A DNA stretch of 64,000 nucleotides, taken from a virus. Position 1 is the first letter of the stretch. Each line of letters starts with the position of its first letter. Made by a program: the position numbers and the translations under genes. Under the pieces are notes generated by a model. The model was given only the letters and a program-made list of their open reading frames with translations, was not told where the DNA came from and made no database searches. Shown here piece after piece: positions 37,599 to 59,530 of this stretch. The stretch lies in IMG/VR virus record IMGVR_UViG_3300029787_000005, positions 32,001 to 96,000 of that record, one strand, 5' to 3'.

Positions 37599-37814
37599 AT
37601 GTCAGATCAAATACGATATGAAACAGATAACGATTCTTTTGATCGGGATCCTAACTCCATGGCTCTTATAAATACAGATAGGAATGCCTACTCACTCTAT
37701 AAGAGTCGTAGGAAAGACGCGCTTGCAGCAAGACAACTACATAATGATGTAGAAGAACTCAAGTCTGATATTGGTGAGATCAAACGAATGATACAGAATT
37801 TAGCTAGAGGATAG
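37599..37814 (+). CDS. Small conserved protein downstream of the VrlC-like gene
   Basis: RDPNSMALINTD motif and a C-terminal coiled coil. Confidence 0.7.
   Translation: MSDQIRYETDNDSFDRDPNSMALINTDRNAYSLYKSRRKDALAARQLHNDVEELKSDIGEIKRMIQNLARG
37667..37674 (+). promoter_or_regulatory. T4-type late promoter upstream of the fibre locus
   Basis: Exact TATAAATA. Confidence 0.55.
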
Positions 37815-37815
37815 T

Positions 37816-38475
37816 ATGGCAAAAACATCTTACTTAGGAGCTAATATAGCAGTAGCTACTGATACGTTTAGAGAATGGGTTGAGAGAACTAACCAGCTCG
37901 TATATGATCAAGGAACTATTGTTATAACTGCTGGAGCAGTTGCTCTACCAAATTCAACTAACCATACTATAACATCAGGTAACGGTCATGTCAACGGTAT
38001 CTTTTCTGCAAATACATTAGTAGCAAAAGATAATATAAGAGGTGGTACAGTACAAACTGCTGCTGCCATGACTCTTGCATCTAATCTTCATGCATCTGCA
38101 AATATCACTCATGATATTGGTACACCAACAATGCAGTTTGGAAATGGATACTTTAAGAATGTATTAGCATCAGGAGATGTTGAAGCTAGTTATTCTTCTG
38201 ACATTGCTTTGAAAACTGATCTACAAAAAATGGAAAATGCAGTAGAGGTATGTAGAAACCTTAATGGCTATATGTTTAAATGGAAGACAGATGATCAAAA
38301 GAATGGTCAGACTGATCTAGGTGTTATTGCTCAAGAGATAGAAGCTGAATTACCATTTCTTGTATCAACAAATGGAAATGGAAACAAGGCTGTTAAATAC
38401 CAGTCGCTCATTCCTCTGTTAATAGAAGCTGTAAAAGAGCTTGACAAGAGAGTTGAAGAATTGGAGAAAGACTAA
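37816..38475 (+). CDS. Short fibre protein with C-terminal intramolecular chaperone (peptidase S74) domain
   Basis: DTFREWVERTN N-terminal motif; SDIALKTD cleavage-type motif, GVIAQE and LIPLLIEAVKEL. Confidence 0.85.
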   Translation: MAKTSYLGANIAVATDTFREWVERTNQLVYDQGTIVITAGAVALPNSTNHTITSGNGHVNGIFSANTLVAKDNIRGGTVQTAAAMTLASNLHASANITHDIGTPTMQFGNGYFKNVLASGDVEASYSSDIALKTDLQKMENAVEVCRNLNGYMFKWKTDDQKNGQTDLGVIAQEIEAELPFLVSTNGNGNKAVKYQSLIPLLIEAVKELDKRVEELEKD

Positions 38476-38768
38476 TGCCATTAAAAGTTAACGGTGTTAC
38501 GATTGTTAACAGCACAGCCAATGTGCAAACATCTACACTGCCGGATACAGGCATATCAACAGGCAACTTTGGAAACACGACCTTTGCTGTCACGGCAAAT
38601 GTAACTAGTAGAGGACTTGTTAATGCTATAAGTGTAGCAGCCATTACAAAGACATCACGTAACTTTGAAGCTGCATCTAATAATGATTCCGAGTATGTTG
38701 TCTACGTTAGTACATCGACACCTTCTGGTGGCGCTAATGGAGATATCTGGTACCAGACATTTAGTTGA
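38475..38768 (+). CDS. Small fibre-associated protein
   Basis: 97 aa ending in PSGGANGDIWYQ, a motif common in phage fibre proteins. Confidence 0.6.
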   Translation: MPLKVNGVTIVNSTANVQTSTLPDTGISTGNFGNTTFAVTANVTSRGLVNAISVAAITKTSRNFEAASNNDSEYVVYVSTSTPSGGANGDIWYQTFS

Positions 38769-38782
38769 GGCATATATAAAGT

Positions 38783-41265
38783 ATGTCTTACTCTAATCGA
38801 CTTTACGCAAAAGAATATGCTGGAGGGGATCGAACCTTTGAGGTTTCGTATACTGGTACTGGTACCAGGACTCCTTACATCGTATACACGAATGCGTTCC
38901 ATGGATTCTATAATGGATTCGAGGGAGTCTATACTAATAGTAGGACATCAACTCTTGCATGGCAAACAAACTTTGCTGGAGCATACACAGCTTCATATGA
39001 AGGCTTTGTAAACTATAATTCAGACGATACAGATACTTACTCAAAAGCATATACATCATTAAAGAACTTTACTGGTCAATTAGGATACAGAAAAGACTAT
39101 TCAGCCACAGGTAATCAACCAGATAATATCTGGTCTACAATGAACATCTTGGCTAACTACAGTGGTACATATAGTACTGATATTGCATACAGCCGTGTTG
39201 TTGGTTATGTTGGCGATGGAAACTATGATGGTGCAGCATATACAGCTACATGGGTTGGAGAGCTAGCATACACACCAACATATAGTGGATTTGTTGGCTT
39301 TGCTTCATATACAAAAACATATGAAGGTTCAACAACATATACCAAAACATACACTAAGACATATGTTGGTAACACAATATACCAAGCTGAGTGGCAGAGA
39401 GACTACTTAAAAGCATATGGTGGTACAGCAACCTATACAAAAGCGTATACTGTTGATGTAAACTACGACAAAGATTATTCTGCTGGTGCATGGGTAGGAG
39501 CAGACAGTTTCGTAGTTTATAGTAAAGACTATGGTGGTGCAATAACATATCTTGATTCTACTGGTGCTGGTTTCACAGGGTTTGTTAACTACACCAAGGG
39601 TTATCAGGCTACACAATTCTATACAAAGACATATGTTGGTACAGTAGATTATAACAAAAACTATGTTGGTGCTGCTGATTACACTAAGGCATACACTGGC
39701 CGTGCTTCATACATGGCTGAAGAGAACTTCAATAAAAACTATACAAAAGCATATACAACAGTAGCTGACTTTACAAGAGTGTGGTCTGGTGGCTTGTCAT
39801 ATCTTGGTAACGTAAACTATGATGGACTAACATACACAGGCACATATGCTGGTGATACAAACTATCAAACTCTTGTATACTATGTTGGAACATCTGACTA
39901 TGTTGGTACATATGAAGGTCTGGCAGACAATTCATATCTTGGTTCTGCATTTGTTGGTGTATATGAAAAAGATTACATTGGTAACTATTTTAGAATATAC
40001 ACTAAGATCTGGCAAAAAGATTATGTAACAGATTACAACAAGAACTATGTAAAAACTTATACTAAAAGATATGAAAAGTTATATGTTGGTGATTACGTTG
40101 CTGCATATCGGACATCATATCACAAAGATTATGATAAAGTCTATTCTAAAATATGGACAAAAGCATACGAAGTTCCATATACCAAGATTTATTCTAAAGA
40201 TTGGGAAAAGACATATACCAAAATCTATACAAAAGTTTGGACAAAAGACTACCTTGAAGATTATGGCAAAGCATGGCTTGGCATATACAACAAAGATTAT
40301 ATCAAACTATACAACAAAGTATATTCCAAAGATTGGGTTAAAGATTACGGAAAAGCATATGTAGGTCCAGTCTACTATGGAGGATTTGCATCCGGTTCTC
40401 AAACAACTGCATACAATAAAGTTTGGCAGAAAGCATATACAGCTGATTATACAAAAGATTGGGAAAAGGCATATGTCAAATCCTACGAAGGTAGCTTTGA
40501 TGCAACATATACTAAAAACTGGTTAACAGATTATGCAGCAGACTATTCCAAAGACTGGGTTAAAGCATATGCTAAAGACTATGATAAAGTTTGGAATGCT
40601 ACTTACGAAAAAGATTATGGCGCCGACTATACCAAGATATGGACTAAGAACTATGATGAGTCTTGGGCCAAGGAATGGGAAAAAGATTACGGCAAGACAT
40701 ATACAAAAATCTGGACTAAGATTTGGCAGAAAGATTATGTTACAGATTATGAAAAAGACTATGGTAAGACATATACCACTGACTATCTAAAAGACTATGT
40801 TGCAACATACAACAAAGATTATGTTGCAAACTATGATCAAATATATCTTAAAAATTGGTCTAAAGACTATGCAGAAGACTATACTAAGATATGGGAAAAA
40901 GCATACGATGCAGCTTATACTAAGATATGGGTTGGAACGTATGAGAAAAACTGGGTCAAAGCATACGAGAAAAATTATGTCAAGGCTTACATAAAAGCAT
41001 ATGGTAAGACTTGGGAAAAAGACTATGTCACAGATTATGATAAAGTCTATACAAAAGCATACAACAAAGGTTATGTCAAAGCATACACTGCTGCATATAC
41101 TAAGATCTGGAATAGAGATTGGGTCAAAGCATATGCTAAGGTTTGGCTTGGTGAGTATACAAAAATTTGGGATAGAAATTGGGAAAAAGACTATTCCAAG
41201 GCATATGAAAAAGCATGGGTTGGTGTATACAGCAAAGACTATGTTACATCTTACCATGTTCCATA
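38783..41265 (+). repeat. Tetrapeptide (12-nt period) [Y/W/F]-x-K-x array 1
   Basis: e.g. YTKIWQKDYVTDYNKNYVKTYTKR; the first ~380 aa are degenerate. Confidence 0.85.
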
Positions 41266-44200
41266 TGATAACTTTGACACCACTGTTCTATTACTAAATG
41301 CTGAAATACCAAATGCAACTGATGGTGATGTAGAGTTTATTGATGCATCTGATCAAGGTAACCATGTTACAACTGTACACGGTAGTGCTGCTAAGAGTAC
41401 AGATCAAAAGAAATTTGGTTCTGCAGCTATAGAAGTTCCAAGCAGTGGTTCTAGTGGTCTAACAATTAACTTTGCAGATGATGACTTCAACTTTCAAAAT
41501 GAAGACTTTACAATTGAGTTTTGGTTAAGAGCTCCTGGTACAAACAATGCTACAATCTTAGAAGCATACGATCATTCTGACAATAGTGTCAAATGGGCTA
41601 TCAGAGGTAACGATGCATCTAGTCCTAGTGAGATAATATTCTACGAAGGAACAACTGCTAGAGTTACAGCAGATGACAATAGTCCTTGGTCATCTGATAC
41701 ATTTAATCATGTTGCAATTGTAAGAATAAGCAACGCAATCAAAGTATACATTAATGGTACAGCTGATGCAGCAACGTATACCTCAGCTGCTAACTTAACT
41801 GGAGCCACTAGATTAGTAATTGGTAACAGAAGACAATTAGATGCATCTGTTGGTGGTTTCATTGATGACCTTAGAATAGACAAAACCAATGGTAAGTATA
41901 CTGGTAACTTTAATGTTACTGATAATGAGACAGCTCAAGAACAAATAAATTCTGCCGATTGGACATCATTCCAAAAAGCATATGTTAAAACATACAGTGC
42001 AGACTATACTAAGATCTGGGCAAAGGATTATGATAAGACATACGAAGGTGTCTTTGATGCAAGTTATGAAAAAGCATATGATAAAGTATATACAAAGGTA
42101 TGGGAAAAAGATTACGTCACAGATTATACCAAGGTCTGGAATAAGAACTGGGAAAAGGCATACGATAAAGTATACACTAAAGCCTGGGTTGGAGCGTATA
42201 CTAAAATATATGTAGGTCCAGTTTACTATGGTGGTTTCGCATCAGGATCACAGACAACAAACTATACCAAAGTTTGGGAAGGTAGCTTTGATGCTGACTA
42301 TACTAAAATTTGGAACAAAGATTATGAAAAAGCATACGATAAAATCTATACCAAAAACTGGGTAAAAGCATACGATAAGACATACACTAAAGACTGGGTC
42401 AAGGCATATGCTAAGACATGGACTGGTGTATATACTAAGATATGGACAAAAGATTACGATAAAGTTTATACTAAAATTTGGAACAAAGACTATGTAAAAG
42501 ATTACGTCAATGTTTGGGTTGGTGAATGGGTCAAGAATTGGGTTAAAGATTACGAAGGTTCTTTTGATGCAACATACAACAAAGTTTGGGTGAAAGCATA
42601 TTCCAAAGACTATGATAAAGTATATGAAGGTTCTTTTGATGCCACATATGAGAAGGCATACTCTAAAGACTATGATAAGGTCTATGAGACAGATTGGAAC
42701 AAAGAGTATGTTGAAACATATGAAAAAGACTATACTAAGATATGGACTAAGAACTGGGTCAAGAATTATGATACTGAATACGAAAAGCAGTATGATAAAG
42801 ATTGGGTTAAGGCATACGAGAAAGATTATGTAGCTGCATATGACAAGAACTGGGATGCAGTCTACAACAAAGATTGGGTCAAAGCCTACGATAAGGTTTA
42901 TACTAAGTTATGGGCTAAAGACTATGAAGCTGCTTATACCAAGATTTGGGATAGAGCTTGGGTCAAGAGTTACGATAAAAACTGGGTCAAGACTTATACC
43001 AAAGACTGGAACAAAGTATATGTTAAGACGTATACTAAAAATTGGGTTAAAAATTACGAGACAGATTACTCAACTGATTACGGTAAGACATATACAAAAG
43101 CATATGAAGCTCACTATACAAGAGACTTCCTCAAGTTATGGCAAGGTGAGTATACTAAGAACTATGACAAAGACTACTTAAAAGACTATGTCAAAACGTA
43201 TACTAAAAACTGGGTCAAAGATTACGAGACTGACTATACTCAAGAGTATCAAGGTACTTACACCAAAGCCTATGAAGGTATCTTTGCAACATTTATCAAA
43301 TACTATCTCGGTGCTAAAAACTGGGAAGGTAATATAAACTACACCAAGAACTATACTGGTCTAAGGTATTATGGTAAGGCTTGGGGTACTGAGTATGCAA
43401 AAACTTGGACTGGTAACTATACTCACGCATACGAAAAAGATTATGTTAAGAACTATGATGCTGACTATACAAAAGATTGGACCGCAACATATACCAAGGC
43501 ATATGTTAAGAACTATGATAAAGTATACACCAAAGTATGGGCTAAAGATTGGACCAAGGCTTATGTTGATGGGTCTGGTGATACCTATACTAAGGTATGG
43601 TCAGCAGATTATGCTGCAGACTATACTAAGGCTTGGAACAAAGATTATGAAAAAGCATACGATAAAGTTTGGAACAAAGTATATACCAAGTCTTGGGAAA
43701 AGGGTTACGTTAAGAATTATGATAAAGAGTATGTTGCTAACTATACTGGATCGTATGGAGGTGCAGCAGCTTATCTAAAAGCATATGCTGGAACAACTGA
43801 TTACTCAGGTCCTGTTAACTATACTAAGACTTGGGAAGGACCATACATAGCCAGCTTTGCACCATCGTATACTGGTGATAGTGACTTTACACAAAGATAT
43901 ACTGGTGCACTAACAAGGAATGTTCCTTACGAAGGTACAACAAGTTTTGTAGGTCCTTCTGGTGGTCAGCTTGATTCTAACCTTGCTGGTCAACCTAAAC
44001 TTCATATTATGCAAGACAATACTTGGAAGAATGTCAAGCAATTGTTTGTACATGCATCTGGTCAGTGGAAGAAAGTCAAGTACTTAAATACTAAACAAGG
44101 TGATACTTGGAAGCTAGCATACATTGGTTACGATACAACTGATATCTTCTTAGATGAAGGTGAAGTTCTTACTAGCGATAGTGATGCAGGTTCAGCTCGA

Positions 44201-47200
44201 GGTCACGATCTTCATATGGGTAAGATCACTTACTATGTAAATGACTTCAACTTAAAATCATATCTTGAAGCTAAAGGTAAGACACCAGATACTGTTCCAC
44301 AATTAGTGAACATATTTGTTGGTGTAAAAGATGACTATACTAAGAACTTTGTATTTGGTTCTACAGCAAATAATATTCCTGCTGTAAACTTAAATATGGA
44401 TTCTGTTACAGCTAATGTTTCAGGAGATACACAAGCAGAGATCAAACACCTTGTACGCATTGTAAACTACACAACTGGATTCATCGTAGGTAAAGGTGGA
44501 GATGGTGGTGATGCAAATGGAAGCACAAGAGGTCTAGGCAGCCATGGTAGTGATGGTGGTCATGCTATTGAGTCTGGAGCCAATGTACATCTGTTTGTAG
44601 AAAACTATGGTACTATTGGTGGTGGCGGTGGTGGTGGAGGTGCATCTGGTATCTCTGATCCATACAGTAAAGAATCTGGTGTGTACACAACTACATATCT
44701 TGGTGACACATATCATGGTTCTGGAGTACTTACTGAGTATGGTGCTACGTGGAGTAAAACATATACAAAAGACTGGATTAAAAATTACGTTAAAGTATAT
44801 GTTGGCGACTACACTAAAGTATATGAAAAAGATTATTCTGCAGACTATGTTAAGGCATACGTTGGTGTATATAATAAAGACTGGGAAAAGGTATACGTTA
44901 AAGAATATGCAGCAGACTACACTAAAGTATATGCTAAGGATTGGGAAAAGACATATACTAAAGCATACGAAGGCTCATTTGATGCAACTTATACTAAGAC
45001 ATATACCAAGATATGGGAAGGTAATTATACCAAAACATATACTAAAAACTATGATAAAGTTTACACAAAAGTATGGGCCAAAGACTTCAGCACAGTATAT
45101 CAAGGTGAGTATACAAAAGTATGGTCTAAAGGATATGCAAGAGATTTTGAAGCAGCATTCAATGGTGGCGGTACAGACTATCTAAGAATCTTCTCAAAAG
45201 ATTACGCCAAAGGATATGAGGTTGTATACACCGGTGACTACACTAAAGTGTGGTCTACAGACTTCAGCGCTGACTATACTAAATCTTGGGAAAAGGCATA
45301 CGATAAAGAGTATGTTGGAGCATACACTAAAGATTATAATAAAGACTATGCAAAGGCTTGGGTTGGAGTATATAATAAAGATTGGGTCAAGGCTTATTCC
45401 AAAGATTATACTAAAGTGTGGACTGGGAACTATCTTAAAGACTATGCTAAGGTATGGGCAAAAGCATATGAAGGATCTTTTGATGGTACTTGGACTAAGG
45501 TTTGGACTAAAACATACACTAAGATCTGGCAAGGTGCATACGAGAAAGATTATCTCAAAGCATACCAGAAAGTATACAACAAACAATATGATGCAAGTTA
45601 TACTGAAGCATACCAGAAAGCATACACTGGACAATTGTATTGGATTGATGAAGACGTAGCATCTTATACTGGAGCTGCTGGAAATTTCACATCTGCTCGA
45701 GCATATGGAGATGGTGAAGTTAGCTTTATCAAAGACTTTAACAAAGAATATGTTTCTGGATTTACTGGCCAGACAGCTTACACTGCAGGAGTACCAGGAT
45801 CAAGAGGTGAGCTTGGATCATTCTCACAAGCAGAGAACTATGATGTTGATTATACTAAACTATATGCATCTCCATATACTAAAGCATACGATAAGATATA
45901 TGCTAAGGCTTGGGATTCATCTGCTGCTAACTATACAGTTAACTGGGAGAAGGCTTGGGTAGAAGATTGGGCTTCAAACTGGGCTGGATCTTTCCATGGT
46001 GGTCAGCAAGATGCAATGACACCAACAAACTTTATGAAGACTTATCTTCCAGACTCTGGTGTTGCTCTATATGCAAAAGAATATACAAATACAAGATTTG
46101 GTCGTACATATGGTGGATATGAATCTGCTGGATTCATTACATCAGTTGGATCATATGCAAAAGCATACACCAAAACATATACTAAGATATGGACTAAATC
46201 ATATACCAAGGCTTGGGAAAAAACATATACTAAAGTATACGAGAAAGATTACAACAAAGCATACGATGGTGCTGCATTTGCTAAAGAATGGACTAAGACA
46301 TATACCAAAACATATGATGGTACAATATATGGTGGCGTATATGAAAAAACATATCAAAAAGCATATGACAAAGTATGGCAAGGAAGTTATGTTGATGAGT
46401 GGGGTGGAGCATATGATAAAGAATATGAAGCAGATTATCTTGCAACATATGTTAAGACATACATTGGTATCTATACCAAGACATACGAGAGTGCAGACGA
46501 TGCATATGTAGGACCTACTTATGATGGTGCAACATATACTAAGAGTTGGGAAAAAGCATACTCTGTTGATTACTCAACTGATTGGGAAAAAGCATACACC
46601 AAGTCATACGACAAAGACTATGAAAAAGCATACGAAGCTGCTTATACAAAAGCATGGTCCAAAGACTATAATAAAGATTATGAAAAAGACTACGAAGGAA
46701 CTTTCTCTAAGAGTTATGTTAAGAACTACGATCGTGTATATGTTGGTGATTATACTAAGACTTACGATAAAGATTATTCCAAAGACTATGCTAAGGTATG
46801 GAACAGCTCTGCTGCAACATATACAAAAGTATATACTAAGAGTTATGACAAAACATACTCAAGTGATTGGACTAAGTCATATGAGAAGGATTATGTAAAA
46901 GATTACACTGGTGCATTTACCAAAGCGTATACTAAAACATATACAAAAGATTACTCAGCTGATTACGCTAAAGAATGGACAAAAGCATATACCAAAACAT
47001 ATGATAAAGATTACACTAAAGCGTATACAAAAATCTATACAAAAGATTATGTCAAAAACTACGATGCAGATTATGTTGGATCATACACTGCAACATTCTC
47101 AAGATCATACGATGCAGAATACGAAGGATCATATGATAAAGAGTATGAAAAAGCATGGACAAAAATATGGACTAAGGGTTTTGGTTCTACTACATACATT

Positions 47201-48262: not shown

Positions 48263-48268
48263 GGTGTC

Positions 48269-51200
48269 ATGGGACGGCCCCTTAAAATTAAAACCTCTGG
48301 AGGTGGAACATGGATAGCTCTACAAGAGATACCAGATACAGAATTAACCCACATAGTCCATCAAGTTCTTACAGAGTTTGCATCTAGTACTTCTGGTACT
48401 GGAACACTTTCTGTTGGAACAGATACTGGAACAAGTATTGGTACATTTACAGATACCAATTCATCAACAAGTTCCACAACTACTGTTTATCAAAATTTAA
48501 CGTCCGTGTCAGAATCAAGTATGGTCCGCCCCGTGGAGTTCGGTTCAACTATTCAAGAGGCATCTGATGCAAACATTAATTCGTTCATCATTAGCACTGC
48601 TCTTTCTAATCTTGTGTCTAACGGAATTGGGTCTTATGTCCTGTCAACAACAAATCCTGACTCAGATAGATACACTGCTATAACACCAGCGCTAACTGAT
48701 AACACAACGAGTACTTCTACAAGTTATAATTTATACAGAAAAACATCTGTTGCAACTGCACCAGCTCAAGTAATACCATTAAAGGTTACTGGTAGTACAG
48801 TTAAACAGATGACTAATACAGAGATCAAAACTCTCACAGCAAGAGTAAGAAATAGAATCATTGACACAGGAATTGGTAAGTATGCTATTCAAGCAGCTGC
48901 ACCATCTACTGGTACATGGGTTGATCAAGGAACAATACTTGATACAAAGATCATTGATTCTGATAGCGATTCCTATTCAAGGACTTACTTAAAAACATAC
49001 ACTAAAGCATTTGCAAAGAATTATCTCAAGACATACACTGGAACATTTGTTGGACAGTATGTTGGTACATATGAGAAAGATTATCAAAAAGCATATACCA
49101 GTGCAATAAACTATGAGAAGATATACACTACAGTTTGGACTAAGTCATATAGTAAAGACTTTATTGGTGTGTATCAAGGTGTAGTCAACTTCAATAGAAC
49201 ATTTGAAGGTGACTTTGCAAAAGATTGGATCAAGTCTTACAGTAAAGCATACACTGGCTTTATACTATATGCAAAAGATTATGATCAAACATTCACAGGA
49301 AACTTTCATAAAGACTATCTCAAGGGATATGTTGGTGAGAGAAACTATCTAGCAGAGTATGCAAGAGATTGGAACAAAACATACACCAAGTTATATACTG
49401 GTGAATATCAAAAGACAGAAAACTTTGAAGTTAATTATGAAGGTGAAAGAGTTGTAAACTACAATGCAACCTTTGCTGCTTTCTACGAAGGTGAGATAAC
49501 TTCAGCTGCAACATATGTCAAAGCATATGTAAAAGATTTTGGAAATGATTATGCTGCTTCATTCTCAGCTGCTGCAAACTATTCTGGTACATTCAACAGA
49601 ACATACACGAAAGATTATGGTAGAGCATGGACTGTTGAGTTTTCAGGTCCTGGTGTATTCCAATCTGAATGGACTAAAAACTATACAGTAAACTATCAAA
49701 AGGCTTATGCAAAGCTCTGGACAAAAGATTGGGTAAAGCAATATATTGTTCAGTATGAAAAGTTATATGAAAAGAGTTGGTTGGAAGATTGGGTCAAGGC
49801 TTACGAGAAAGACTATGAAGCAGCATATGATAAAGATTGGATTAAAAACTGGGTCAAATCATATTCAAAAGATTGGAATAAAGATTATTCTGCTGACTAT
49901 CTAAAAGACTATGGTAAGACATATACTACTGATTACAACAAAGATTATATCACCAACTACGAGAAAACATATGTGAAGGCATACGTTGGTGTATACAATA
50001 AAGACTATATCAAAGCATACGAGAAAGATTGGGTTACAGACTATACTCACAATTGGGTCAAAGCATATCTAAAGGTATGGAACAAAGACTATGTCAAAGG
50101 TTATGAGATTGCATGGAACAAAGTATGGTTAGGTATCTATACTAAAGACTGGTCAAAAGACTATGAAAAAATATATGTAAAGAATTGGGTAAAATCATAT
50201 GATGCGGACTACGCAAAACAATGGCTTGGTGAGTATGAAAAAAATTATGTCAAGTCTTATGACAAAGATTATGTTAAGGCATACGATCGCATCTGGTCAC
50301 AAACGTACACAAAAATCTACGATGCAGCATACACAAAGATCTGGGCCAAGGACTGGGAAAAAGATTACGTAAAGATATATCAAAAGAACTACGTTAAAAC
50401 ATATAGTGCTGCATATGAAGGATCGTTTGATGAAAACTATAACAAAGATTATGTAGCTGCATATACAAAGATATGGAACAAGACTTATACTAAGATCTGG
50501 CAGAAAGACTATGTCACAGATTACACAAAGACATACACAACAGATTATAATAAAGACTATACAAAAATTTATGCTAAGGCTTGGGTTGGTGCATATACAA
50601 AAATATATGTTGGGCCTGTGTACTACGGTGGTTTTGCATCTGGATCTCAAACTACAAACTACACAAAAGTTTGGGAAGGTAGCTTTGGTGCCAACTATAC
50701 AAAGGTATGGGTAAAGACATATACCAAAGATTGGAACAAAGCATATACCAAGAACTGGATAAAAAACTATGATGCTGATTATGTAAAAGCATATGATAAG
50801 ATATACGAAAAGGCTTGGGTCAAGACTTATACTAAAGCATATGTTGGTGTTTACAATAAGGATTGGAACAAAGATTACGTTAAGGATTATTCCAAAAATT
50901 GGGTTAAAGCATATACTAAGAATTACGATAAAGTATATAACAAAGATTGGTCTAAAGATTGGAACGTTGATTACGTTGCAGTGTATCTAAAGAATTGGGT
51001 TAAGACATACGACAAAGATTATGTTAAAGCATATGAAGGTGCCTTTGATGCAACCTACACAAAGATATGGAATAAAGATTATCTAAAAGACTATGCTAAG
51101 TTGTGGGCTAAGGATTATGATAAAGAGTATGAAGGATCTTTTGATGCTGCATATGTTAAACAATATGCAAAGAACTGGGTAAAGGCTTATGAGGCTAGTT

Positions 51201-52360
51201 ACGAGAAAGACTACGAAGCAGCATATACAAAGAACTGGGTTACACAATACGAGAAGAACTATGTCAAATCATACGAAGGATCATTTGATGCTGACTGGGT
51301 AAAGGCTTATACAAAAAATTGGGTTAAGACATATACAACTGATTGGAACAAAACTTATACCAAGACTTATACTAAGTTGTGGACCAAGACATATACAACT
51401 GAGTATGAAAAGGACTATGTTAAAAATTATGTTGCAAGATATCTTACAAACTGGGTAAAGACTTATGAAAAAGCATACGAGAAGTCCTACGCAAAAACTT
51501 ATGAAAGAATATGGACAAAAATTTGGGAGAAAGCATATACTCGCAACTACTCCGCCACATACCTCAAAGACTATACCAAGGTATGGTCACGGGATTATGA
51601 AGGCAATTATACTGGTTTCATCAATTACACTGGACAATTTATTTCAAACTACCTCAAAGACTACGTTGGACAAGTAACAAAAACATTTTCTGGCTTTATT
51701 AATTACAATAAACTGTTTACTAAGAGCTGGGGTCGGATGTATAATAAAGAATATGTCAACGAATGGGCTAAGGTTCAAAACTTCCAAAAAGACTTTGAAA
51801 AAGATTTTGCTAAAGAATACGTAGGTGTGTATACTAAAACATACTCATCTATTCATACGTATGAAGGAACAAGAACTGTAGACTATCAGAAAACATATAC
51901 AGCAGATTATACAAAAGAGTATGCAGCAGACATAACCTATGTCAAGACTTATACAGCTACACGCTCTCAAGGATTTGAAGGAGCATATGAAAAAACATAT
52001 AGTAGTGAGACAGACTATGAAAAAGACTACGATAAAGAATATGAAGCTGTATATAATAGTAACTTTGGTAGCATTAACTTTTCTGCTACACTCAATTTTG
52101 AAAAGGCTTGGACTAAGAACTTTGCAAAATTTTATGATGCAGAATATGCGAAGAACTACGAAGGATATATAGACTACACACAAGACTACAATAAGGCTTA
52201 TGAAGGAACTTTCACAGGATACTTTGAGACAGACTTCATAAAAACTTATTCAATAGATTATTCAAACGACTATATTAAGAGCTATATAAATACATATGTA
52301 GATACAACCAACTATGTGGGAACCGCATCTACACTTAAATTATGGGTGAGGGTTGCTTAA
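48269..52360 (+). CDS. Second [Y/W]xKx-repeat structural protein (1363 aa)
   Basis: About 235-aa Ser/Thr-rich N-terminal domain, about 1110-aa repeat array, and a short C-terminal strand TLKLWVRVA. Confidence 0.8.
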   Translation: MGRPLKIKTSGGGTWIALQEIPDTELTHIVHQVLTEFASSTSGTGTLSVGTDTGTSIGTFTDTNSSTSSTTTVYQNLTSVSESSMVRPVEFGSTIQEASDANINSFIISTALSNLVSNGIGSYVLSTTNPDSDRYTAITPALTDNTTSTSTSYNLYRKTSVATAPAQVIPLKVTGSTVKQMTNTEIKTLTARVRNRIIDTGIGKYAIQAAAPSTGTWVDQGTILDTKIIDSDSDSYSRTYLKTYTKAFAKNYLKTYTGTFVGQYVGTYEKDYQKAYTSAINYEKIYTTVWTKSYSKDFIGVYQGVVNFNRTFEGDFAKDWIKSYSKAYTGFILYAKDYDQTFTGNFHKDYLKGYVGERNYLAEYARDWNKTYTKLYTGEYQKTENFEVNYEGERVVNYNATFAAFYEGEITSAATYVKAYVKDFGNDYAASFSAAANYSGTFNRTYTKDYGRAWTVEFSGPGVFQSEWTKNYTVNYQKAYAKLWTKDWVKQYIVQYEKLYEKSWLEDWVKAYEKDYEAAYDKDWIKNWVKSYSKDWNKDYSADYLKDYGKTYTTDYNKDYITNYEKTYVKAYVGVYNKDYIKAYEKDWVTDYTHNWVKAYLKVWNKDYVKGYEIAWNKVWLGIYTKDWSKDYEKIYVKNWVKSYDADYAKQWLGEYEKNYVKSYDKDYVKAYDRIWSQTYTKIYDAAYTKIWAKDWEKDYVKIYQKNYVKTYSAAYEGSFDENYNKDYVAAYTKIWNKTYTKIWQKDYVTDYTKTYTTDYNKDYTKIYAKAWVGAYTKIYVGPVYYGGFASGSQTTNYTKVWEGSFGANYTKVWVKTYTKDWNKAYTKNWIKNYDADYVKAYDKIYEKAWVKTYTKAYVGVYNKDWNKDYVKDYSKNWVKAYTKNYDKVYNKDWSKDWNVDYVAVYLKNWVKTYDKDYVKAYEGAFDATYTKIWNKDYLKDYAKLWAKDYDKEYEGSFDAAYVKQYAKNWVKAYEASYEKDYEAAYTKNWVTQYEKNYVKSYEGSFDADWVKAYTKNWVKTYTTDWNKTYTKTYTKLWTKTYTTEYEKDYVKNYVARYLTNWVKTYEKAYEKSYAKTYERIWTKIWEKAYTRNYSATYLKDYTKVWSRDYEGNYTGFINYTGQFISNYLKDYVGQVTKTFSGFINYNKLFTKSWGRMYNKEYVNEWAKVQNFQKDFEKDFAKEYVGVYTKTYSSIHTYEGTRTVDYQKTYTADYTKEYAADITYVKTYTATRSQGFEGAYEKTYSSETDYEKDYDKEYEAVYNSNFGSINFSATLNFEKAWTKNFAKFYDAEYAKNYEGYIDYTQDYNKAYEGTFTGYFETDFIKTYSIDYSNDYIKSYINTYVDTTNYVGTASTLKLWVRVA
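48974..52315 (+). repeat. Tetrapeptide array 4, symmetric about a central motif
   Basis: aa 236-1349; degenerate flanks, strict core, and YVGPVYYGGFASGSQTTNY at aa 780-798. Confidence 0.85.
52285..52292 (+). promoter_or_regulatory. T4-type late promoter upstream of the hypothetical/GT/hydroxylase trio
   Basis: Exact TATAAATA about 79 nt upstream of ATG 52371. Confidence 0.55.
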
Positions 52361-52370
52361 GGAGTATATA

Positions 52371-53168
52371 ATGAGTAGTGAAGAAGTAATGGATATTGAT
52401 CCTAGAGCCCATGGCTTTAAGATTGATACGGCCGGTAAGGTCGCTAGCTCAGAAGCAGAGTTAGCAAACAAAAGAATAGATGCTAAAATTCCAGAGTTTG
52501 AAGAAGAAATAGATCATGACATTCCTCATGACAAGGAAGAAGTGGTTGAAGAAGTTTACAAAGAAAGTCTCAGTAAAGATCGTTCAGACCGACTAGGGTT
52601 GGTCAGACCTCCAGATAAGAATATGAAAACATCATGGATGCGTGATCCTGTCGAGGCAGATGATATGGAGGAGATCAAATTGGCAGAAGAAAAAGCTAGG
52701 GAACCTGAATGGCCTTTTGGTGATGGTGAACCAATATATGCATTCTTTAGTAATGATGCAAGGACAGTACTTACATTCTTTCTAAGAATGCCAGATGATA
52801 GAGTTGAGAATCATACTATAGACTCAGCTCCTATGCATGAAGCTGCATGGCATCATCTACGAAAAATCTTCACAGAAGAAATGTTGAATAAGAATACTAG
52901 TCGAGAGATCAATAAGATTCATAGACTGCGTTCCAAAGAAGAAGATGAAGAAAAAGAACGTGAAAGTAAGATGAAGCAAGAAGGGTTGTTCGGTGCTAAA
53001 GTTGAGGCATTTGAACTGGAAGTTGTTAGTAAGTCTACTAATAGAGATTTGAAATCAGCTATCCGTAAATCAAAATCTACTATGGAAGTTATTGCCACTG
53101 TAGGTGCTCTCATTGCTCTTGATCATTTGGAGTCTAAAAAAGAAGATGTCCCAGCAGCAGCCGAATAA
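52371..53168 (+). CDS. Hypothetical acidic protein (possible fibre assembly factor)
   Basis: ORF track 52353..53168; the likely start is 52371 after AAGGAG. C-terminal LFGAKVEAFE...K..IRKSK. Function inferred from position only. Confidence 0.6.
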   Translation: MSSEEVMDIDPRAHGFKIDTAGKVASSEAELANKRIDAKIPEFEEEIDHDIPHDKEEVVEEVYKESLSKDRSDRLGLVRPPDKNMKTSWMRDPVEADDMEEIKLAEEKAREPEWPFGDGEPIYAFFSNDARTVLTFFLRMPDDRVENHTIDSAPMHEAAWHHLRKIFTEEMLNKNTSREINKIHRLRSKEEDEEKERESKMKQEGLFGAKVEAFELEVVSKSTNRDLKSAIRKSKSTMEVIATVGALIALDHLESKKEDVPAAAE

Positions 53169-54033
53169 TGGTTTTCTGTACGTAGGATCTCTGACTAAAC
53201 CATATTATGATGCTGCTGTAATGTCAGCAGAGTCCATTAAGGACTACTGGCCAGAAGCTAAGATAATGTTGTTTACTCATGAAGATTGGGTACAAGAACC
53301 AAGAGACTCTAGAATCTTTGATAAAATTGTTACTGGAGTCCCAGCACATTGTCGAGCTAAGCTATGGGCATTAAATCAAACTATATTTGATAAGACATGC
53401 TATATGGATGCTGACACATATTGTGAGCATGAAGACATAAAGTATATCTTTGATGATCTACCTGATAACTATGATATGGCTATGACTACAAATAGACCAT
53501 ATAATGCTAAGGTTGTCTACTTTAAGAAAGATAGAGAGCTTACTCATTATGAAGAAGAAGACAAGAAGTTAATCTGGGAAGGTGGGGACCCAGATGGCAA
53601 ACCATTGTATGCAGTGCACTCTTGGGAAGAGAATGCCAAGAATGAAGTATACAGAATGTTATGGCATTGTGGAATGTTTATATATAATAATAAGCCGCAT
53701 ACGCTAAAAATGTTACATGCATGGTATACTAATTATAGGGAACAGATTGAAAACAAAAAGACATGGCACGAAAGATTTGAACATCCAAGATCATTGTGGT
53801 TCTGGGATACGTATGCTTTCTGGCGAACAAACTTTTATACAAATTATGAAGTCAAGATTCGTGAGATCCATCCAAAGTGGAACTTTGTAAATGGATACAG
53901 AGAATTTGAATTAAGTGAAAAACATCCAAAAGTTATTCACCACTACACAGTACCAGCTCGACCACAGGATGAAGGATTAATAGATGACCCCAATATATCA
54001 AATACAATCGGAAATTTTGACATACTTAAATGA
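53146..54033 (+). CDS. Nucleotide-diphospho-sugar glycosyltransferase (GT-A)
   Basis: GFLYV, SAESIKDY, RAKLWAL..T.FDKT.YMDADT (DxD), HCGMFIY, WNFV and IHHY motifs. Probable start 53146 (ORF track 53104). Confidence 0.78.
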   Translation: MSQQQPNNGFLYVGSLTKPYYDAAVMSAESIKDYWPEAKIMLFTHEDWVQEPRDSRIFDKIVTGVPAHCRAKLWALNQTIFDKTCYMDADTYCEHEDIKYIFDDLPDNYDMAMTTNRPYNAKVVYFKKDRELTHYEEEDKKLIWEGGDPDGKPLYAVHSWEENAKNEVYRMLWHCGMFIYNNKPHTLKMLHAWYTNYREQIENKKTWHERFEHPRSLWFWDTYAFWRTNFYTNYEVKIREIHPKWNFVNGYREFELSEKHPKVIHHYTVPARPQDEGLIDDPNISNTIGNFDILK

Positions 54034-54757
54034 GTGGCAAGAGTTCATATGGGGACTAGAGCTCCATGAAAACTTTGGTAAAGATAAGAAGTTTAAAGCT
54101 CGAGGTGGCAAGTTCTTTAACGAGAACCGATCAGAGTATGCAAGTTCCGTAGAGTGTTTGATGTCTCTTAAACATGATGAGCATGATGGCTTTCCACCAG
54201 ACTCATATGGATATGACTTTAATCAGATACCACAATGGATCAAGTCAGGATCTATTAGTAAAGATATAGGTGAGCCATTAGCTGAGAAGAGTAAATGGTT
54301 GGATGATAATCTTGGTGCTTATCTTGGATATAGGTTCTGTGCATTAAAGATGTTCTATCCTCCAGAAGGATATATTTCTTGGCATACTAACTGGAACGTA
54401 CCAAGCTACAACATTTTATTTACATACAATCCTACTGGTGATGGTTTCTGGAGACATATTAATCCAACTGGATCAGAGTCACATAGACCTAACATAGGAG
54501 AGAATGAAGAGAACGTAGTTACTATTCCTGACAAGCCAGGTTGGTCATGTAAGGTTGGTTACTATGGACGTAAAGAAGAACATGACAGGATTGTTTGGCA
54601 TACAGCTTATACTAAGGAGCCAAGAATCACATTAGGTTATGTTATCTTTGAAGAAAGTATTTGGAAGAATACAGTTGAAGAGATTGCTGGTAAAGAATTA
54701 GTATGGCCTCTAGCTCCATATGAACCAGAGGCCGTACAAACATCCTTTACTAAATAA
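53984..54757 (+). CDS. Putative Fe(II)/2OG-type hydroxylase (cupin fold)
   Basis: YPPEGYISWHTN, distal WHTA and PRITLGY. HxN replaces the canonical HxD, so the call is tentative. Confidence 0.55.
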   Translation: MTPIYQIQSEILTYLNEWQEFIWGLELHENFGKDKKFKARGGKFFNENRSEYASSVECLMSLKHDEHDGFPPDSYGYDFNQIPQWIKSGSISKDIGEPLAEKSKWLDDNLGAYLGYRFCALKMFYPPEGYISWHTNWNVPSYNILFTYNPTGDGFWRHINPTGSESHRPNIGENEENVVTIPDKPGWSCKVGYYGRKEEHDRIVWHTAYTKEPRITLGYVIFEESIWKNTVEEIAGKELVWPLAPYEPEAVQTSFTK

Positions 54758-56254: not shown

Positions 56255-56896
56255 TCAAGTTTCATCTTTATTGACCTTTCCAATAACCATTATACGTTTA
56301 GCACCTAAGAACTCTCTTGACTCTCCATAGAATACCTTTCTAAGATGCCCTTGTGTAGCTAACTCTCCTGCACCTTCAGCACAATTGATGTGTAGCCATT
56401 TAACATTCTTGTTGTTGTTACTTTGTAATACATATAACTTATCTGGATATTGATTTGTTATATGTTTCATATCCATCATATGTTCACAAGAACAATTAAT
56501 AACAACATTGCCTTTGAGATCTAAGTTATCAAACACAACATCTTTATGATTAACTGTTACTTGTGGAAACTCATCTTTGTAAATATGCTGTGCAATATCG
56601 CAAGTATACTCATCAATGTCATATAGATTAATAGGAATATCATAACCAAGACGATTAACAAGCATAGGCACAATGACAATACCATACCAGCTAGCCAAGA
56701 TATCAATGCCTTTAATTTGTCTATCACGGAACCTCGCATCTACTAATGTCTCAACTAACCACCACTTACTTTGTATTTGTGTTTCAAATATACATTCACT
56801 GTAGTCTTTGAACTTGTATATATGCTTGTCAGCTATATATCCCATCCCTTTATGGAACAGCTGGTATGTTCTATCTAATGAATAATGTTGCATCAA
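56255..56896 (-). CDS. SAM-dependent methyltransferase-like protein
   Basis: SK.WL, ILASWYG (motif I-like), YDID, VINCSCEHM, LQSNN and RIMVIG motifs. Confidence 0.7.
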   Translation of the reverse strand: MMQHYSLDRTYQLFHKGMGYIADKHIYKFKDYSECIFETQIQSKWWLVETLVDARFRDRQIKGIDILASWYGIVIVPMLVNRLGYDIPINLYDIDEYTCDIAQHIYKDEFPQVTVNHKDVVFDNLDLKGNVVINCSCEHMMDMKHITNQYPDKLYVLQSNNNKNVKWLHINCAEGAGELATQGHLRKVFYGESREFLGAKRIMVIGKVNKDET

Positions 56897-57552
56897 TCAC
56901 CCCAAAATTGTTTCAACGTTTCTTCCTTATCTTCTACATTATCAAAACATGCAACAACATGATTATCTCTCTTTTTATACTCATCAAGATCATCTGGAAA
57001 CGATGAACCATACTTATATGAGTATGCAAGTTTACTTGGAAAAAACTTTAGCTTATCTCTATGCCTTCTATACATCCAGCCATCCAATCCATAGAATGAC
57101 TTATATACCTTCTCTTTGTTGTCTTGAAAGTCTTTGTATTGTTCTTCAAAATTATTATCTTTAAGATATAGTATTGATGAGTTAACATCACAGTTAAAGA
57201 TATACTTGTTTATATCATTACTGAACCATGTTGTCTTTAATATCTGACCATTATCAACAAACTCTTTTAGTTGACCATGAACAAAGCAATCCAGATCAAG
57301 ATATATTGTATCGTTAGTAAACAATCCAGGTTCAAACAAGTTTACTTTATTCCACCACAATCTATCAAGACAAAATGATTTATAGTTATAGACTTGTATG
57401 TTCTGATCAAACCCTCTAGGATTATCAGTCCAGCATGTAAAGGTATTGACTTGATGTTTGACTTGGTGAAACAATTGGTTAACAAACTCATGTTTGTAGC
57501 CTGTACCAACCTTCATACATACAACATCTAACTTCATAGGTATTGCTTCCAC
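56893..57552 (-). CDS. Glycosyltransferase (GT-A), paralog 3
   Basis: VVCMKVG..Y, TDNP, WWNKVNLF, YLDLD, NSSI and YSYK motifs. Confidence 0.75.
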   Translation of the reverse strand: MEAIPMKLDVVCMKVGTGYKHEFVNQLFHQVKHQVNTFTCWTDNPRGFDQNIQVYNYKSFCLDRLWWNKVNLFEPGLFTNDTIYLDLDCFVHGQLKEFVDNGQILKTTWFSNDINKYIFNCDVNSSILYLKDNNFEEQYKDFQDNKEKVYKSFYGLDGWMYRRHRDKLKFFPSKLAYSYKYGSSFPDDLDEYKKRDNHVVACFDNVEDKEETLKQFWGD

Positions 57553-58295
57553 TCTTTAGCAACCCATCCAGTTTTTATATCTAATGGGTCTGGCTCATGA
57601 TCTTCCATAAAGACACAGACAGCATGATCTGGTCTATACTTATATTTAGCCTCGCTACCTTTGACTGTATAATTGTCTGGATATGCAGCACCTCTATTGA
57701 ATGAGTATACAGATCCTTTTGGATATGTGTGTATCTTATCTCTCCACTTACGCCATAAGTAAGCATCAGCACTATACAACGATTGCTTAATCATCTTATA
57801 GTTCTTACTAAAGTGTGTCCATATCTCATTTGTAACTGGATCAGTATTGTCTACGTATATCAAACTGGCATTAAACAACATAGTTAAGAAATAATTACCA
57901 CCATGCATACCAACATGCCAAGGTGGCATCCAGTCACATGCAATCATTGCTGGTGTTGGTGTTTCAAGTATTCTATCCATTGGACCAAGAAATAAGTTAT
58001 CAAGATCAGTGAATAATATCTTACCTTCTATGCCACATAACTTAGGAGCAAACAATGACATCTTGATACCATCCCAGAAGTACCATTGTTCGTTGTTTAT
58101 TATATCACTCCATAGCCATTGTTCTGTGCATTCAACTGCTTTGATGTCTTCGTCTAATCCTTTTGGATCATCTGTCATACAATAGGATTTGAACTCTTGA
58201 TTGAAATGCTTCTTGGCCATTCTGTGGATTAAGTTTGGATACTCAGGACCAAACTTATCACCCCACTTCATAGTCATCAAGTTAATAATATTCAA
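57534..58295 (-). CDS. Glycosyltransferase (GT-A), paralog 2
   Basis: MKWGDKF..EY, CMTDDP, K.SLF, FTDLD, NASL and YSFN motifs. Confidence 0.75.
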   Translation of the reverse strand: MNIINLMTMKWGDKFGPEYPNLIHRMAKKHFNQEFKSYCMTDDPKGLDEDIKAVECTEQWLWSDIINNEQWYFWDGIKMSLFAPKLCGIEGKILFTDLDNLFLGPMDRILETPTPAMIACDWMPPWHVGMHGGNYFLTMLFNASLIYVDNTDPVTNEIWTHFSKNYKMIKQSLYSADAYLWRKWRDKIHTYPKGSVYSFNRGAAYPDNYTVKGSEAKYKYRPDHAVCVFMEDHEPDPLDIKTGWVAKEWKQYL

Positions 58296-59130: not shown

Positions 59131-59530
59131 CTATCCACCTTCTTGTAATACTCAAGAATTCATCCACTTTTGTTACTCTCTCTTTATTATCTCTATTGAT
59201 AAGTGCTAGAGGTAACCAATCTTTACATGCTATCCAATCATGTATTGTATGATGGTCACTTATAGTTGACCAAGTCAACCATGTACCGACACCATGATTC
59301 TTCAACTCTCTAAAACATTTCTCTATTGTAAATGCTCTGAGAGTCTTATCAAATTCAAATGGTAGTCTACCAGACGCATGAAACTGTTGAGGGTCTAAGT
59401 ACGCCTGGTACGTATCTTTATAAGTTGCAACATAATAATACTTATACTTCTTATTATTATATAATAATCTTATTGGGTTAAGCTCATCACCTTTTGGCTT
59501 CTCGAAGAATGTTGGCACTAACTTCTTCAT
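59117..59530 (-). CDS. Hypothetical protein
   Basis: 137-aa ORF coupled between the radical SAM and GT genes. Confidence 0.55.
   Translation of the reverse strand: MKKLVPTFFEKPKGDELNPIRLLYNNKKYKYYYVATYKDTYQAYLDPQQFHASGRLPFEFDKTLRAFTIEKCFRELKNHGVGTWLTWSTISDHHTIHDWIACKDWLPLALINRDNKERVTKVDEFLSITRRWIDDTH

Follow-up and report, generated by a model that had tools for sequence, protein, structure and literature searches.

We analysed a 64,000-nucleotide (nt) window of the IMG/VR virus record IMGVR_UViG_3300029787_000005 (positions 32,001 to 96,000 of that record; coordinates below are those of the window), in which positions 37,816 to 54,757 carry two giant genes, encoding proteins of 3159 and 1363 amino acids (aa) referred to here as P0001 and P0002, and a cassette of three genes for an acidic helper, a candidate glycosyltransferase (GT) and an oxygenase-like protein. 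The reading that we favour, with moderate confidence, is that an uncultured T4-like marine myovirus encodes its distal host-recognition module here, in the form of fold-back hairpin fibres and an accessory cassette. P0002 would consist of a small lobed base domain from which one enormously lengthened beta-hairpin sprouts, the chain running out for ~545 residues, turning at a 15-residue tip, returning in exact register and completing the base domain with a short tail. Each strand would alternate aromatic residues with Lys, and across the hairpin the aromatic residues would lie opposite one another. P0001 would re-use at least four such hairpin modules inside an adhesin which also carries laminin-G lectin-like and gp38-like glycine-rich domains, and the helper, the GT-A-like transferase and the oxygenase would tailor the fibre, or assist its assembly, away from the repeat lysines.

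Both giant proteins were built mostly of a [Y/W/F]-x-K-x repeat, as a first-pass annotation of this DNA had observed and as spacing counts confirmed. Successive aromatic residues were four positions apart in 497 of 653 gaps in P0001 and in 235 of 284 gaps in P0002, and the pattern [YWF]xKx occurred 324 and 153 times, respectively. Position 0 of the repeat was Y (67-71%), W (21%) or F (8-12%), and the +2 position was K (64% in P0001, 63% in P0002), G (10-12%) or A (10%), with T/V/E/D at +1 and D/A/T/N at +3. In-register units held ~66% of the residues of P0001 and ~72% of those of P0002; the 13.5 kb originally assigned to the repeat is therefore right as the length of the two genes and too high for the repeat itself, since, out of 13.6 kb of coding DNA, in-register units make up ~9.2 kb. 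The proteins contained 14% Y, 11-12% K and 11-12% T, had no Cys, and their acidic and basic residues were near balance. Tandem Repeats Finder, run on the DNA, detected no more than short arrays (1.9-3.2 copies), and it follows that the period is kept by selection on the protein. In only 2 of 86 cases did a Gly at the K position have Trp two residues later, compared with 127 of 472 cases for Lys (p 1.7e-8). The aromatic residue following such a Gly was often Phe (W-x-G-x-F/Y) and Trp before Gly was present at normal frequency, so the rule is directional. N-x-S/T sequons were not enriched in the arms (5 against 12.4 expected, and 3 against 6.9 expected).

The internal symmetry of P0002 carries most of the argument for a returning chain. 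Its in-register runs measured 11, 6, 6, 6, 6, (break), 5, 6 and 80 units up to the 15-residue tip, then 80, 4, 6, 6, 4, 3, 5 units and so on. The tip itself was the turn GPV[YF]YGGFASGSQTT, which was invariant in 22 aligned modules. Eight stutters of the outward arm had eight partners in the return arm, mirrored about F789 to within ±2 residues, and the gapless mirror score was 98.5 at F789 as against 38.5 at the next best centre. Within the perfect segment (79 K positions) every Gly of the outward arm faced a Gly (5/5), the return arm having 6 Gly in all, for a hypergeometric p of 2.7e-7 at the pre-specified tip centre. Trp stood opposite Trp once in 80 pairs, and when six proposed hairpin segments were pooled there were 3 Trp-Trp cross-strand pairs among 219, with 14.7 expected (p 7.6e-6). 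Arm lengths were equal in the related loci as well, with 80|80 units in the window and in L010, L011 and L012, and 79|79 in the L014 orthologue, apparently a concerted loss of one unit per arm. The orthologue in L012 (10001-14360) had an extra ~89-aa segment at the base of the outward arm with no return-arm counterpart. Because the arms are mirrored, Gly faces Gly and Trp avoids Trp, the P0002 chain most likely folds back as a giant beta-hairpin; this fold is strongly supported by the internal symmetry, not by any structure, and the pairing rules fit two in-register antiparallel strands belonging either to one chain or to identical chains.

The ends of the protein are consistent with such a fold. 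Residues 1-235 aligned with distant base domains at 35-43% identity with 39 invariant columns, and lobes 2 and 3 of the base domain were homologous in a relative (expectation value, E, of 8e-8); when the two lobes of P0002 itself were compared by BLASTP, no match was obtained. Lobe 2 ends in a TLTD-like strand, a ~10-residue loop and an LW.KTA-like strand; at the end of lobe 3 an L.DT-like strand leads into the entire repeat, which is followed by the C-terminal LW[VIL][RK].. tail. By this comparison the repeat would occupy the place of the simple turn of the sister lobe. P0002 has the C-terminus LKLWVRVA; close variants of it were found at the ends of the full-length family proteins listed, and the tail resembles the last strand of base-domain lobe 2. 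No Pfam, PHROG or PDB sequence match was obtained over the arms or the base domain, and neither the base-domain profile nor the tip-module profile matched a solved structure. Beta-strands rise 0.33-0.35 nm per residue, and the 545-residue arm would span 180-190 nm, whether as a single or a bundled ribbon. The T4 long tail fibre, for comparison, is given as ~145 nm (about 1450 Å) in PMC6957217.

P0002 belongs to a large family. A search with a 571-aa relative against a large database (8000 best candidates scored, lengths 314-1000 aa) returned at least 1247 homologues at E ≤ 1e-5. Among the 120 homologues listed, one had a precomputed Pfam entry, and such names as were given read 'hypothetical protein' save for two obviously automatic misnomers. 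Among 50,697 phage records the sole family member was a 3347-aa protein of phage C48C1 (OQ984149), annotated as 'hypothetical protein'; it has [Y/F]-x-[G/R]-x units and lies in the same gene order. The base domain found 120 relatives in IMG/VR, and 79 loci gave 66 distinct family proteins. Lys made up 59-67% of the +2 position in five proteins of the window clade only and 16% in two others, and the remaining 59 of the 66 had 36-95% Gly and at most 3% Lys at that position; the arms of the subgroup L015-L017 had 2% Y and 16-19% F. The tip-module profile matched 453 cluster representatives at E ≤ 0.001, and of the best 148 of these, 10 had at least 40% K and 83 at least 40% G. As Lys is so rare relative to Gly among the relatives, the aromatic-Lys repeat is a rare derivative, specific to this lineage, of an aromatic-x-Gly-x repeat. 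Like P0002, the Gly-type members have a lobed base domain and arms of equal length, end in the LW[VIL][RK] tail and are accompanied by the cassette. The window clade differs from them in having Lys for Gly at +2, in arms that are among the longest seen, and in the hairpin module transplanted four or more times into the 3159-aa P0001. In a 4046-aa relative (P0330) 22 stretches were matched by the tip-module profile. A separate group of proteins of ~1050-1220 aa (P0322-P0324) had mixed K/G repeats with a different N-terminus and C-terminal ending, and so the period-4 aromatic repeat is used in more than one protein frame. A literature search, with supplementary material outside its scope, found no paper on phage C48C1 nor on a tyrosine-rich or tetrapeptide fibre repeat; within that search the proposed fold-back aromatic tetrapeptide fibre is a large family whose design was not found described in print.

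P0001 had no family base domain or tail and ended in NYMFQG. It was found only in the close clade of loci L010-L014, which was also the only clade matched by its N-terminus, and its arrays were 34-59% identical to those of P0002. The role in adhesion proposed in the first-pass annotation agrees with the presence of a Laminin_G_3 domain (E 1.2e-17) and a GP38 domain (E 1e-9) in this protein, and the statement that the giant proteins are unlike T4 gp34-37 or collagen-like fibres also held, as neither P0001 nor P0002 had such a match in Pfam or PHROG. The gp38-like segment matched PF05268 at E 1.1e-7 when the whole protein was searched and at 1e-9 when the piece was searched (32.3-39 bits against a cutoff of 25), covering positions 38-120 of 218 only, and matched phrog_2056 at E 1.9e-9. 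A Pfam match of the laminin-G domain to the receptor-binding N-domain of clostridial neurotoxin (E 4.7e-6), accompanied by weak PDB rows for tetanus toxin, was rejected as reflecting the shared concanavalin-A-like fold only. At tip motif 2, each Gly at a K position of the 21-unit N-terminal arm lay opposite a Gly of the return arm (2/2), and in the hairpin at the NGGG turn this was so for 5 of 5 (hypergeometric p 6.5e-5). Taken with the genomic context set out below, these domains make the fibre reading of the giant proteins well supported.

The C-terminal 140 aa of P0001 (47840-48259, + strand) were glycine-rich and had no Pfam match; they may be the second half of the gp38-like domain, with ~1070 aa of hairpin arrays between the two. 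A pairing of the N-terminal 390 residues with aa 1389-1706 was considered and rejected, the former alternating between spacings of 4 and 6 and the latter having almost pure period 4. Among the orthologues, that in L012 (5012-5560) had a fourth tip motif, and that in L014 likewise had one extra.

The three-gene cassette was found to accompany the fibre gene closely. On the 3' side of the base-domain gene, the GT and the oxygenase were present in 72 of the 79 loci and the helper in 73, and the seven loci that had no GT all end within 2.5 kb of the start of the base domain. A reverse search from the oxygenase returned 80 loci, three of them already in the first set, and the 77 new loci were analysed. 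In the 67 with at least 2.5 kb upstream we found the GT in 65, the base domain in 59 and the tail motif in 62; in two of the 67 the partners were on the other side of the match. Co-occurrence of the repeat gene with the GT and hydroxylase neighbours, which the first-pass annotation had put forward as a check, was thus near-obligate in both search directions. As synteny, the link between enzymes and fibre is strongly supported, and the cassette most likely tailors the fibre or helps to assemble it at a family-conserved site, possibly the base domain.

The helper was indeed acidic as annotated (isoelectric point 4.98, 62 D+E against 42 K+R) and had no family match in Pfam or PHROG. The calls of a GT and a cupin-type hydroxylase stand in part: Pfam gave neither protein a match at its curated thresholds, also with the search opened to E 10, and their identity comes from profiles and fold prediction. 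In the GT, D88 and D90 of the DxD motif were invariant in 34 sequences and aligned with the DxD of glycogenin in a profile match, glycogenin-1 being the top PDB profile match at E 0.12, which is below significance. Relatives of the GT gave weak matches, below the curated cut-offs, to PF00535 (21 of 34, best 1.9e-4), to GT8 PF01501 (9) and to Nucleotid_trans PF03407 (6), and a language-model neighbour cluster (Atlas) was labelled 'nucleotide-diphospho-sugar transferase' with a score of 0.97.

The oxygenase-like protein was modelled by AlphaFold2 (AF2) with a predicted local distance difference test score (pLDDT) of 92.5. The hydroxylase call is supported by the double-stranded beta-helix of 2-oxoglutarate (2OG) oxygenases and departs from them in having HxN in place of HxD. 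Of the 69 PDB matches that Foldseek returned at E ≤ 1e-3, every one listed was a 2OG oxygenase, at modest template modelling (TM) scores of 0.25-0.32. The VIA-align Z scores were highest for PHD2 (9.7), followed by bacterial and placozoan prolyl hydroxylases (9.3), the PBCV-1 collagen prolyl hydroxylase (9.0) and lysine hydroxylases/halogenases (8.6-8.7); best Z values of 7-8 are common for unrelated models, and the result is a fold assignment, not a function. Residues invariant in 34 sequences were H134-x-N136, H206 and R214, together with H67, D183, K190 and E199. H134-x-N136 and H206 were assigned to the canonical sites by the AF2 strands E130-134 and E206-210 rather than by residue-level superposition. 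R214 lies 8 residues past H206 at the start of strand E214-221, and by analogy with PHD2 may bind the C5 carboxylate of 2OG. By fold assignment the protein is a predicted enzyme with a prolyl-hydroxylase-like 2OG oxygenase fold.

Several observations weigh against the interpretation given here. When the centre of P0002 was left free, 5 Gly pairs were reached at some centre in 58 of 2000 whole-protein shuffles, so the small p value needs the centre to be fixed at the tip. AF2 modelling of the 183-aa tip module from a 22-row alignment gave a pLDDT of 33.2, and the hairpin topology of that model was not used as evidence; a three-copy complex prediction of the module scored 0.00 and speaks neither for nor against a trimer. 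In the Gly-type relatives the mirror centre fell at the midpoint of the array with the runner-up close behind, and the measure favours the midpoint by construction. In P0001 the arms differ in length at tip 1 (31 against 72 units) and at tip 2 (21 against 86), and the mirror score of this protein gave many near-equal pairings with no single one standing out, because any two in-register arrays match. A nested model, in which hairpin 1 is followed by a stem bearing the laminin-G domain and hairpin 2 at its end, explains part of the inequality. It predicts a mirror sum of 2073 that sets aa 680-828 against aa 1245-1393, and at this sum the aromatic positions matched in 38 of 38 cases and Gly was paired in 2 of 3 (p 0.013). 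For the cassette, the GT of the window matched PF00535 at E 0.26-0.3 and all GT matches were below curated cut-offs. The oxygenase had an invariant Asn where the canonical Asp/Glu iron ligand is expected (HxN, not HxD/E), and had no sequence match to Pfam or PDB, with 34 members searched at E ≤ 1 giving only chance-level matches.

The source record is a 128-kb IMG/VR virus record with an estimated completeness of 73%. On the 5' side of the fibre genes lie T4-type baseplate genes gp5/6/7/8 (tail lysozyme/hub and wedge subunits), and these support an assignment of the locus to the baseplate/fibre module of a T4-like myovirus. The wedge protein gp6 was just 31-35% identical to that of the isolates listed, among them Caulobacter, Sinorhizobium, Pelagibacter and Synechococcus phages, and the phage therefore represents an uncultured T4-like lineage; megablast of the whole region against the 50,697 phage records gave no match. 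As the first-pass annotation stated, the genes form a co-oriented run (37599-54757, entirely on the + strand) and include a fibre stub with an S74 chaperone, PF13884 being found in the 219-aa protein at aa 128-183 (E 4.6e-13, 49.7 bits against a cutoff of 22). This protein also had 34 tail-fibre PHROG matches, including phrog_25747 over aa 1-116, and the 97-aa open reading frame (ORF) that follows it had no match in Pfam or PHROG. The late promoters reported for this run are a weaker case: two + strand copies of the T4-type consensus TATAAATA are present, at 37667 and 52285, and the motif was not significantly enriched, with 13 copies in the window against 7.8 expected and 13 reached in 4 of 100 shuffles. 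Short contigs that were 90-99% like parts of the genes for P0002, the helper, the GT and the oxygenase were found in four marine metatranscriptomic runs from two studies; these are only compatible with transcription, as DNA carry-over is possible in such libraries.

A 2189-aa phrog_358 protein (E 1.5e-297) is encoded directly 5' of the fibre genes (31028-37597, + strand) and was kept in distant relatives and in phage C48C1. On the 3' side of the cassette lies a convergent operon of candidate tailoring genes (Table 1). Its GTs matched the glycosyltransferase family phrog_1962 (E 5.6e-12, 9.3e-6 and 1.6e-13), its radical S-adenosylmethionine (SAM) enzyme matched PF04055 (E 3.3e-15), and its Asp/Arg-hydroxylase-like protein matched PF05118 at E 7.7e-4, below the cutoff of that family. 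Homologues of some of the operon genes were found beside the cassette in the distant loci L015, L017 and L018; distant loci have one copy of the operon GT, as against three in tandem in the window. Between cassette and operon lies a pstS-type phosphate-binding gene (PF12849, E 4.9e-42; 55170-56159, - strand), which had no match in any related locus examined, L010 and L011 included. In those two loci the genes that flank the pstS position are 95-99% identical to ours and only ~570 nt apart, and pstS would seem to be an auxiliary metabolic gene that was inserted recently. An LtfC-like protein (L-shaped tail fibre assembly protein) is encoded at 61083-61418 (+ strand; phrog_3304, E 1.1e-21), and in phage C48C1 a gene annotated as L-shaped tail fibre assembly protein is found directly 3' of the oxygenase homologue. 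We also considered a reading of the locus as a ribosomally synthesised and post-translationally modified peptide (RiPP) precursor, with radical SAM and tailoring enzymes beside a repetitive peptide, and rejected it in view of the size of the proteins, the adhesin domains and the structural-module context.

Table 1. Features of the fibre region and its 3' flank, in window coordinates (GT, glycosyltransferase; SAM, S-adenosylmethionine).
Feature	Position	Strand	Basis or remark
71-aa small virion structural protein	37599..37814	+	phrog_473 'virion structural protein', E 1.8e-14
219-aa short fibre: tail-fibre N-terminus and S74 intramolecular chaperone, no shaft	37816..38475	+	Pfam, PHROG
97-aa ORF, kept in close clade	38475..38768	+	92-99% identity in L010-L012 and L014
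P0001, 3159-aa composite adhesin/fibre with several aromatic-lysine hairpin arrays	38783..48262	+	translation, repeat statistics, in-register runs
P0001 tip motif 1 (aa 528-542), GPV[YF]YGGFASGSQTT turn	40364..40408	+	
P0001 laminin-G / concanavalin-A-like lectin domain (aa 829-1062)	41267..41968	+	PF13385 Laminin_G_3, E 1.2e-17
P0001 tip motif 2 (aa 1145-1159)	42215..42259	+	motif position
P0001 gp38-like glycine-rich adhesin segment (aa 1868-1959)	44384..44659	+	PF05268, phrog_2056
P0001 hairpin at NGGG turn, arms aa 1986-2126 (36 units) and 2133-2281 (38 units)	44738..45625	+	
P0001 tip motif 3 (aa 2963-2977)	47669..47713	+	2/3 Gly mirrored
P0002, 1363-aa fibre-like protein	48269..52360	+	open frame
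P0002 base domain (aa 1-235), internally repeated lobes	48269..48973	+	alignment with relatives
P0002 outward arm (aa 236-780): 26-residue-spaced blocks, then 80 unbroken units	48974..50608	+	in-register runs
P0002 tip motif (aa 782-796), mirror centre F789	50612..50656	+	motif positions
P0002 return arm (aa 798-1349): 80 unbroken units, then blocks mirroring outward arm	50660..52315	+	
P0002 C-terminal tail, ends LWVRVA, plus stop codon	52316..52360	+	LW[VIL][RK] tail of family
TATAAATA, T4-type late-promoter consensus	52285..52292	+	~80 nt 5' of helper gene
265-aa acidic helper, C-terminal half kept family-wide	52371..53168	+	pI 4.98
295-aa GT-A-like glycosyltransferase candidate, invariant DxD	53146..54033	+	
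257-aa 2OG/Fe(II)-oxygenase-fold protein, prolyl-hydroxylase-like	53984..54757	+	
Convergent operon, candidate tailoring genes	56255..61024	-	conserved unknown, three paralogous GTs, unknown, radical SAM, Asp/Arg-hydroxylase-like

Two other accounts of the arrays themselves were weighed. Most phage fibres are trimers, and on that precedent the repeats could be a parallel trimeric shaft of the conventional kind (triple beta-helix or beta-solenoid), with no fold-back and with the period of four and the 26-residue super-period as solenoid coils. The trimeric state of T4 gp34, gp36 and gp37, as given in PMC6957217, and the 26-residue super-period of the proximal arms are in keeping with such a shaft. 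It predicts neither equal arms nor mirrored stutters, Gly-Gly or Trp-avoiding pairs or the change from 80|80 to 79|79. The distal 2 x 80 units have no super-period of any kind, and the C-terminal tail looks like one of the strands of the N-terminal base domain. We regard such a shaft as very improbable. We give an equally low probability to the arrays being a disordered, low-complexity 'sticky' flexible brush, comparable to aromatic-rich kinked segments or to the Tyr/Lys adhesives of mussels. The extreme composition bias and the very low AF2 confidence point that way, and Gly-type relatives resemble Tyr/Gly/Ser low-complexity sequences. Exact register over 80 units per arm and arm lengths that change in concert count against disorder, and the facing Gly residues, the avoidance of Trp-Trp pairs and the scarcity of Trp two residues after Gly argue for ordered packing.

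A different question is what the enzymes act on. The first-pass annotation had proposed the logic of collagen, with hydroxylation of Lys followed by glycosylation, so that the adjacent hydroxylase and GT would act on the repeat lysines, maybe also on tyrosines, to yield a modified adhesive filament. The conserved gene adjacency can be read in this way, as can the likeness of the oxygenase fold to lysine hydroxylases/halogenases (Z 8.6-8.7) and a neighbourhood with four genes of GT type, a radical SAM enzyme and another hydroxylase-like gene. The best, non-significant, PDB relative of the GT was moreover glycogenin, an enzyme that glucosylates itself on Tyr. Comparison with the family did not support the proposal, since Lys is confined to the window clade, the Gly relatives (Lys at most 3%) keep the cassette, L015-L017 keep it with arms of 2% Tyr and 16-19% Phe, arm sequons are not enriched and the oxygenase has HxN. 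The cassette being kept where arms have no Lys or nearly no Tyr, the repeat Lys/Tyr is not its conserved target. Collagen-like chemistry on Lys is thus unlikely as a conserved function, a site in the base domain or tail or a role in assembly would fit the cassette better, and we consider modification of the repeat lysines quite unlikely in the window as well. A broader version, to which we give a small probability, is that both proteins are single-chain, two-stranded ribbons of up to ~180 nm with a hydroxylated and/or glycosylated Tyr/Trp-Lys face, serving as a wet-adhesive capture filament. In P0001 the ribbons would form a branched tree with lectin-like and gp38-like heads, and the modifying enzymes would be the HxN oxygenase, the radical SAM enzyme and four GTs. 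The enzymes might instead modify host envelope glycans or another phage component, the fibre region being a hot spot for accessory genes. The insertion of pstS right beside the cassette in the window genome indicates that this spot does accept accessory genes, and PHROGs places the neighbouring GT family in the class 'moron, auxiliary metabolic gene and host takeover'. The order of fibre, helper, GT and oxygenase was, however, kept at base-domain identities down to 32-43% in both search directions, which is unusual for unrelated accessory genes, and the four genes abut or overlap; we therefore hold this explanation to be unlikely too.

Phage fibres decide which cells a phage catches. Known fibre architectures comprise trimeric helices, spirals and prisms; the locus described here suggests another building principle, in which a single chain returns along itself over hundreds of residues and is held by an aromatic ladder. 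The family that would use it has more than a thousand members without a name, in T4-like phages of aquatic habitats. The cleanest internal evidence for the fold-back so far comes from the lysine variant, in the 80|80 arms with their 79|79 change, the Gly-Gly pairing and the avoidance of Trp-Trp, and P0001 would show that the hairpin is portable and can be grafted, as a module, into adhesins of other kinds. The near-obligate association of helper, GT and unusual HxN oxygenase with the fibre gene means that self-tailoring of virion proteins by marine phages can be put to the test, and the locus offers a natural scaffold for the design of very long beta-ribbons. A wet-adhesive capture filament, if true, would be a virion appendage with no described counterpart.

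The nearest structural idea to fold-back P0002 is the needle of T4 gp37, in which the chain runs to the tip and returns; the fold-back of this needle domain (D11) was reportedly described by Bartual et al. in 2010. Both are thin distal elements with a returning chain. The gp37 needle is short and is a trimer held together by His-coordinated iron, whereas P0002 has arms of ~545 residues, no HxH motif and no sequence relation to it. PMC6957217 describes the needle as trimeric with seven iron atoms along it. The gp38 adhesin of the T2/S16 type (PF05268) shares its glycine-rich part with aa 1868-1959 of P0001, the C-terminus of which also has glycine-rich motifs, and differs in that P0001 has ~1070 aa of hairpin arrays between its two glycine-rich parts. 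Antiparallel sheets stabilised on one face by cross-strand aromatic pairs and aromatic-Lys contacts, with no hydrophobic core, are known from the designed trpzip/WKWK hairpins and from the single-layer sheet of OspA. Those comprise 12-20 residues or a few strands, whereas P0002 would reach ~136 units per arm.

For the enzymes, the prolyl 4-hydroxylases and PHD-type enzymes, that of PBCV-1 included, have the same beta-helix fold (Z 9.0-9.7) with His, His and Arg at the canonical strand positions; the oxygenase of the window has an invariant Asn at the Asp/Glu ligand and no sequence match to them. In the hydroxyproline pathway of Skp1 the hydroxylase PhyA is followed by a GT-A transferase, and in this hydroxylate-then-glycosylate order the pathway recalls the window, where the oxygenase gene likewise lies beside a GT-A-like gene. 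Mimivirus L230 combines a collagen lysyl hydroxylase with a glycosyltransferase, and systems of that type resemble the window in having hydroxylase-like and GT-like genes by a Lys-rich repetitive structural protein. Collagen-type systems are built on Gly-X-Y, while the repeat described here is aromatic with a period of four, its Lys is not conserved in the family though the enzymes are, and its oxygenase is nearest to prolyl hydroxylases. A precedent for phages that glycosylate their own virion proteins comes from mycobacteriophages with GTs encoded beside structural genes, and one paper infers capsid glycosylation from two GT genes; those are other phages with other GT families, and the targets are the capsid or the tail tube.

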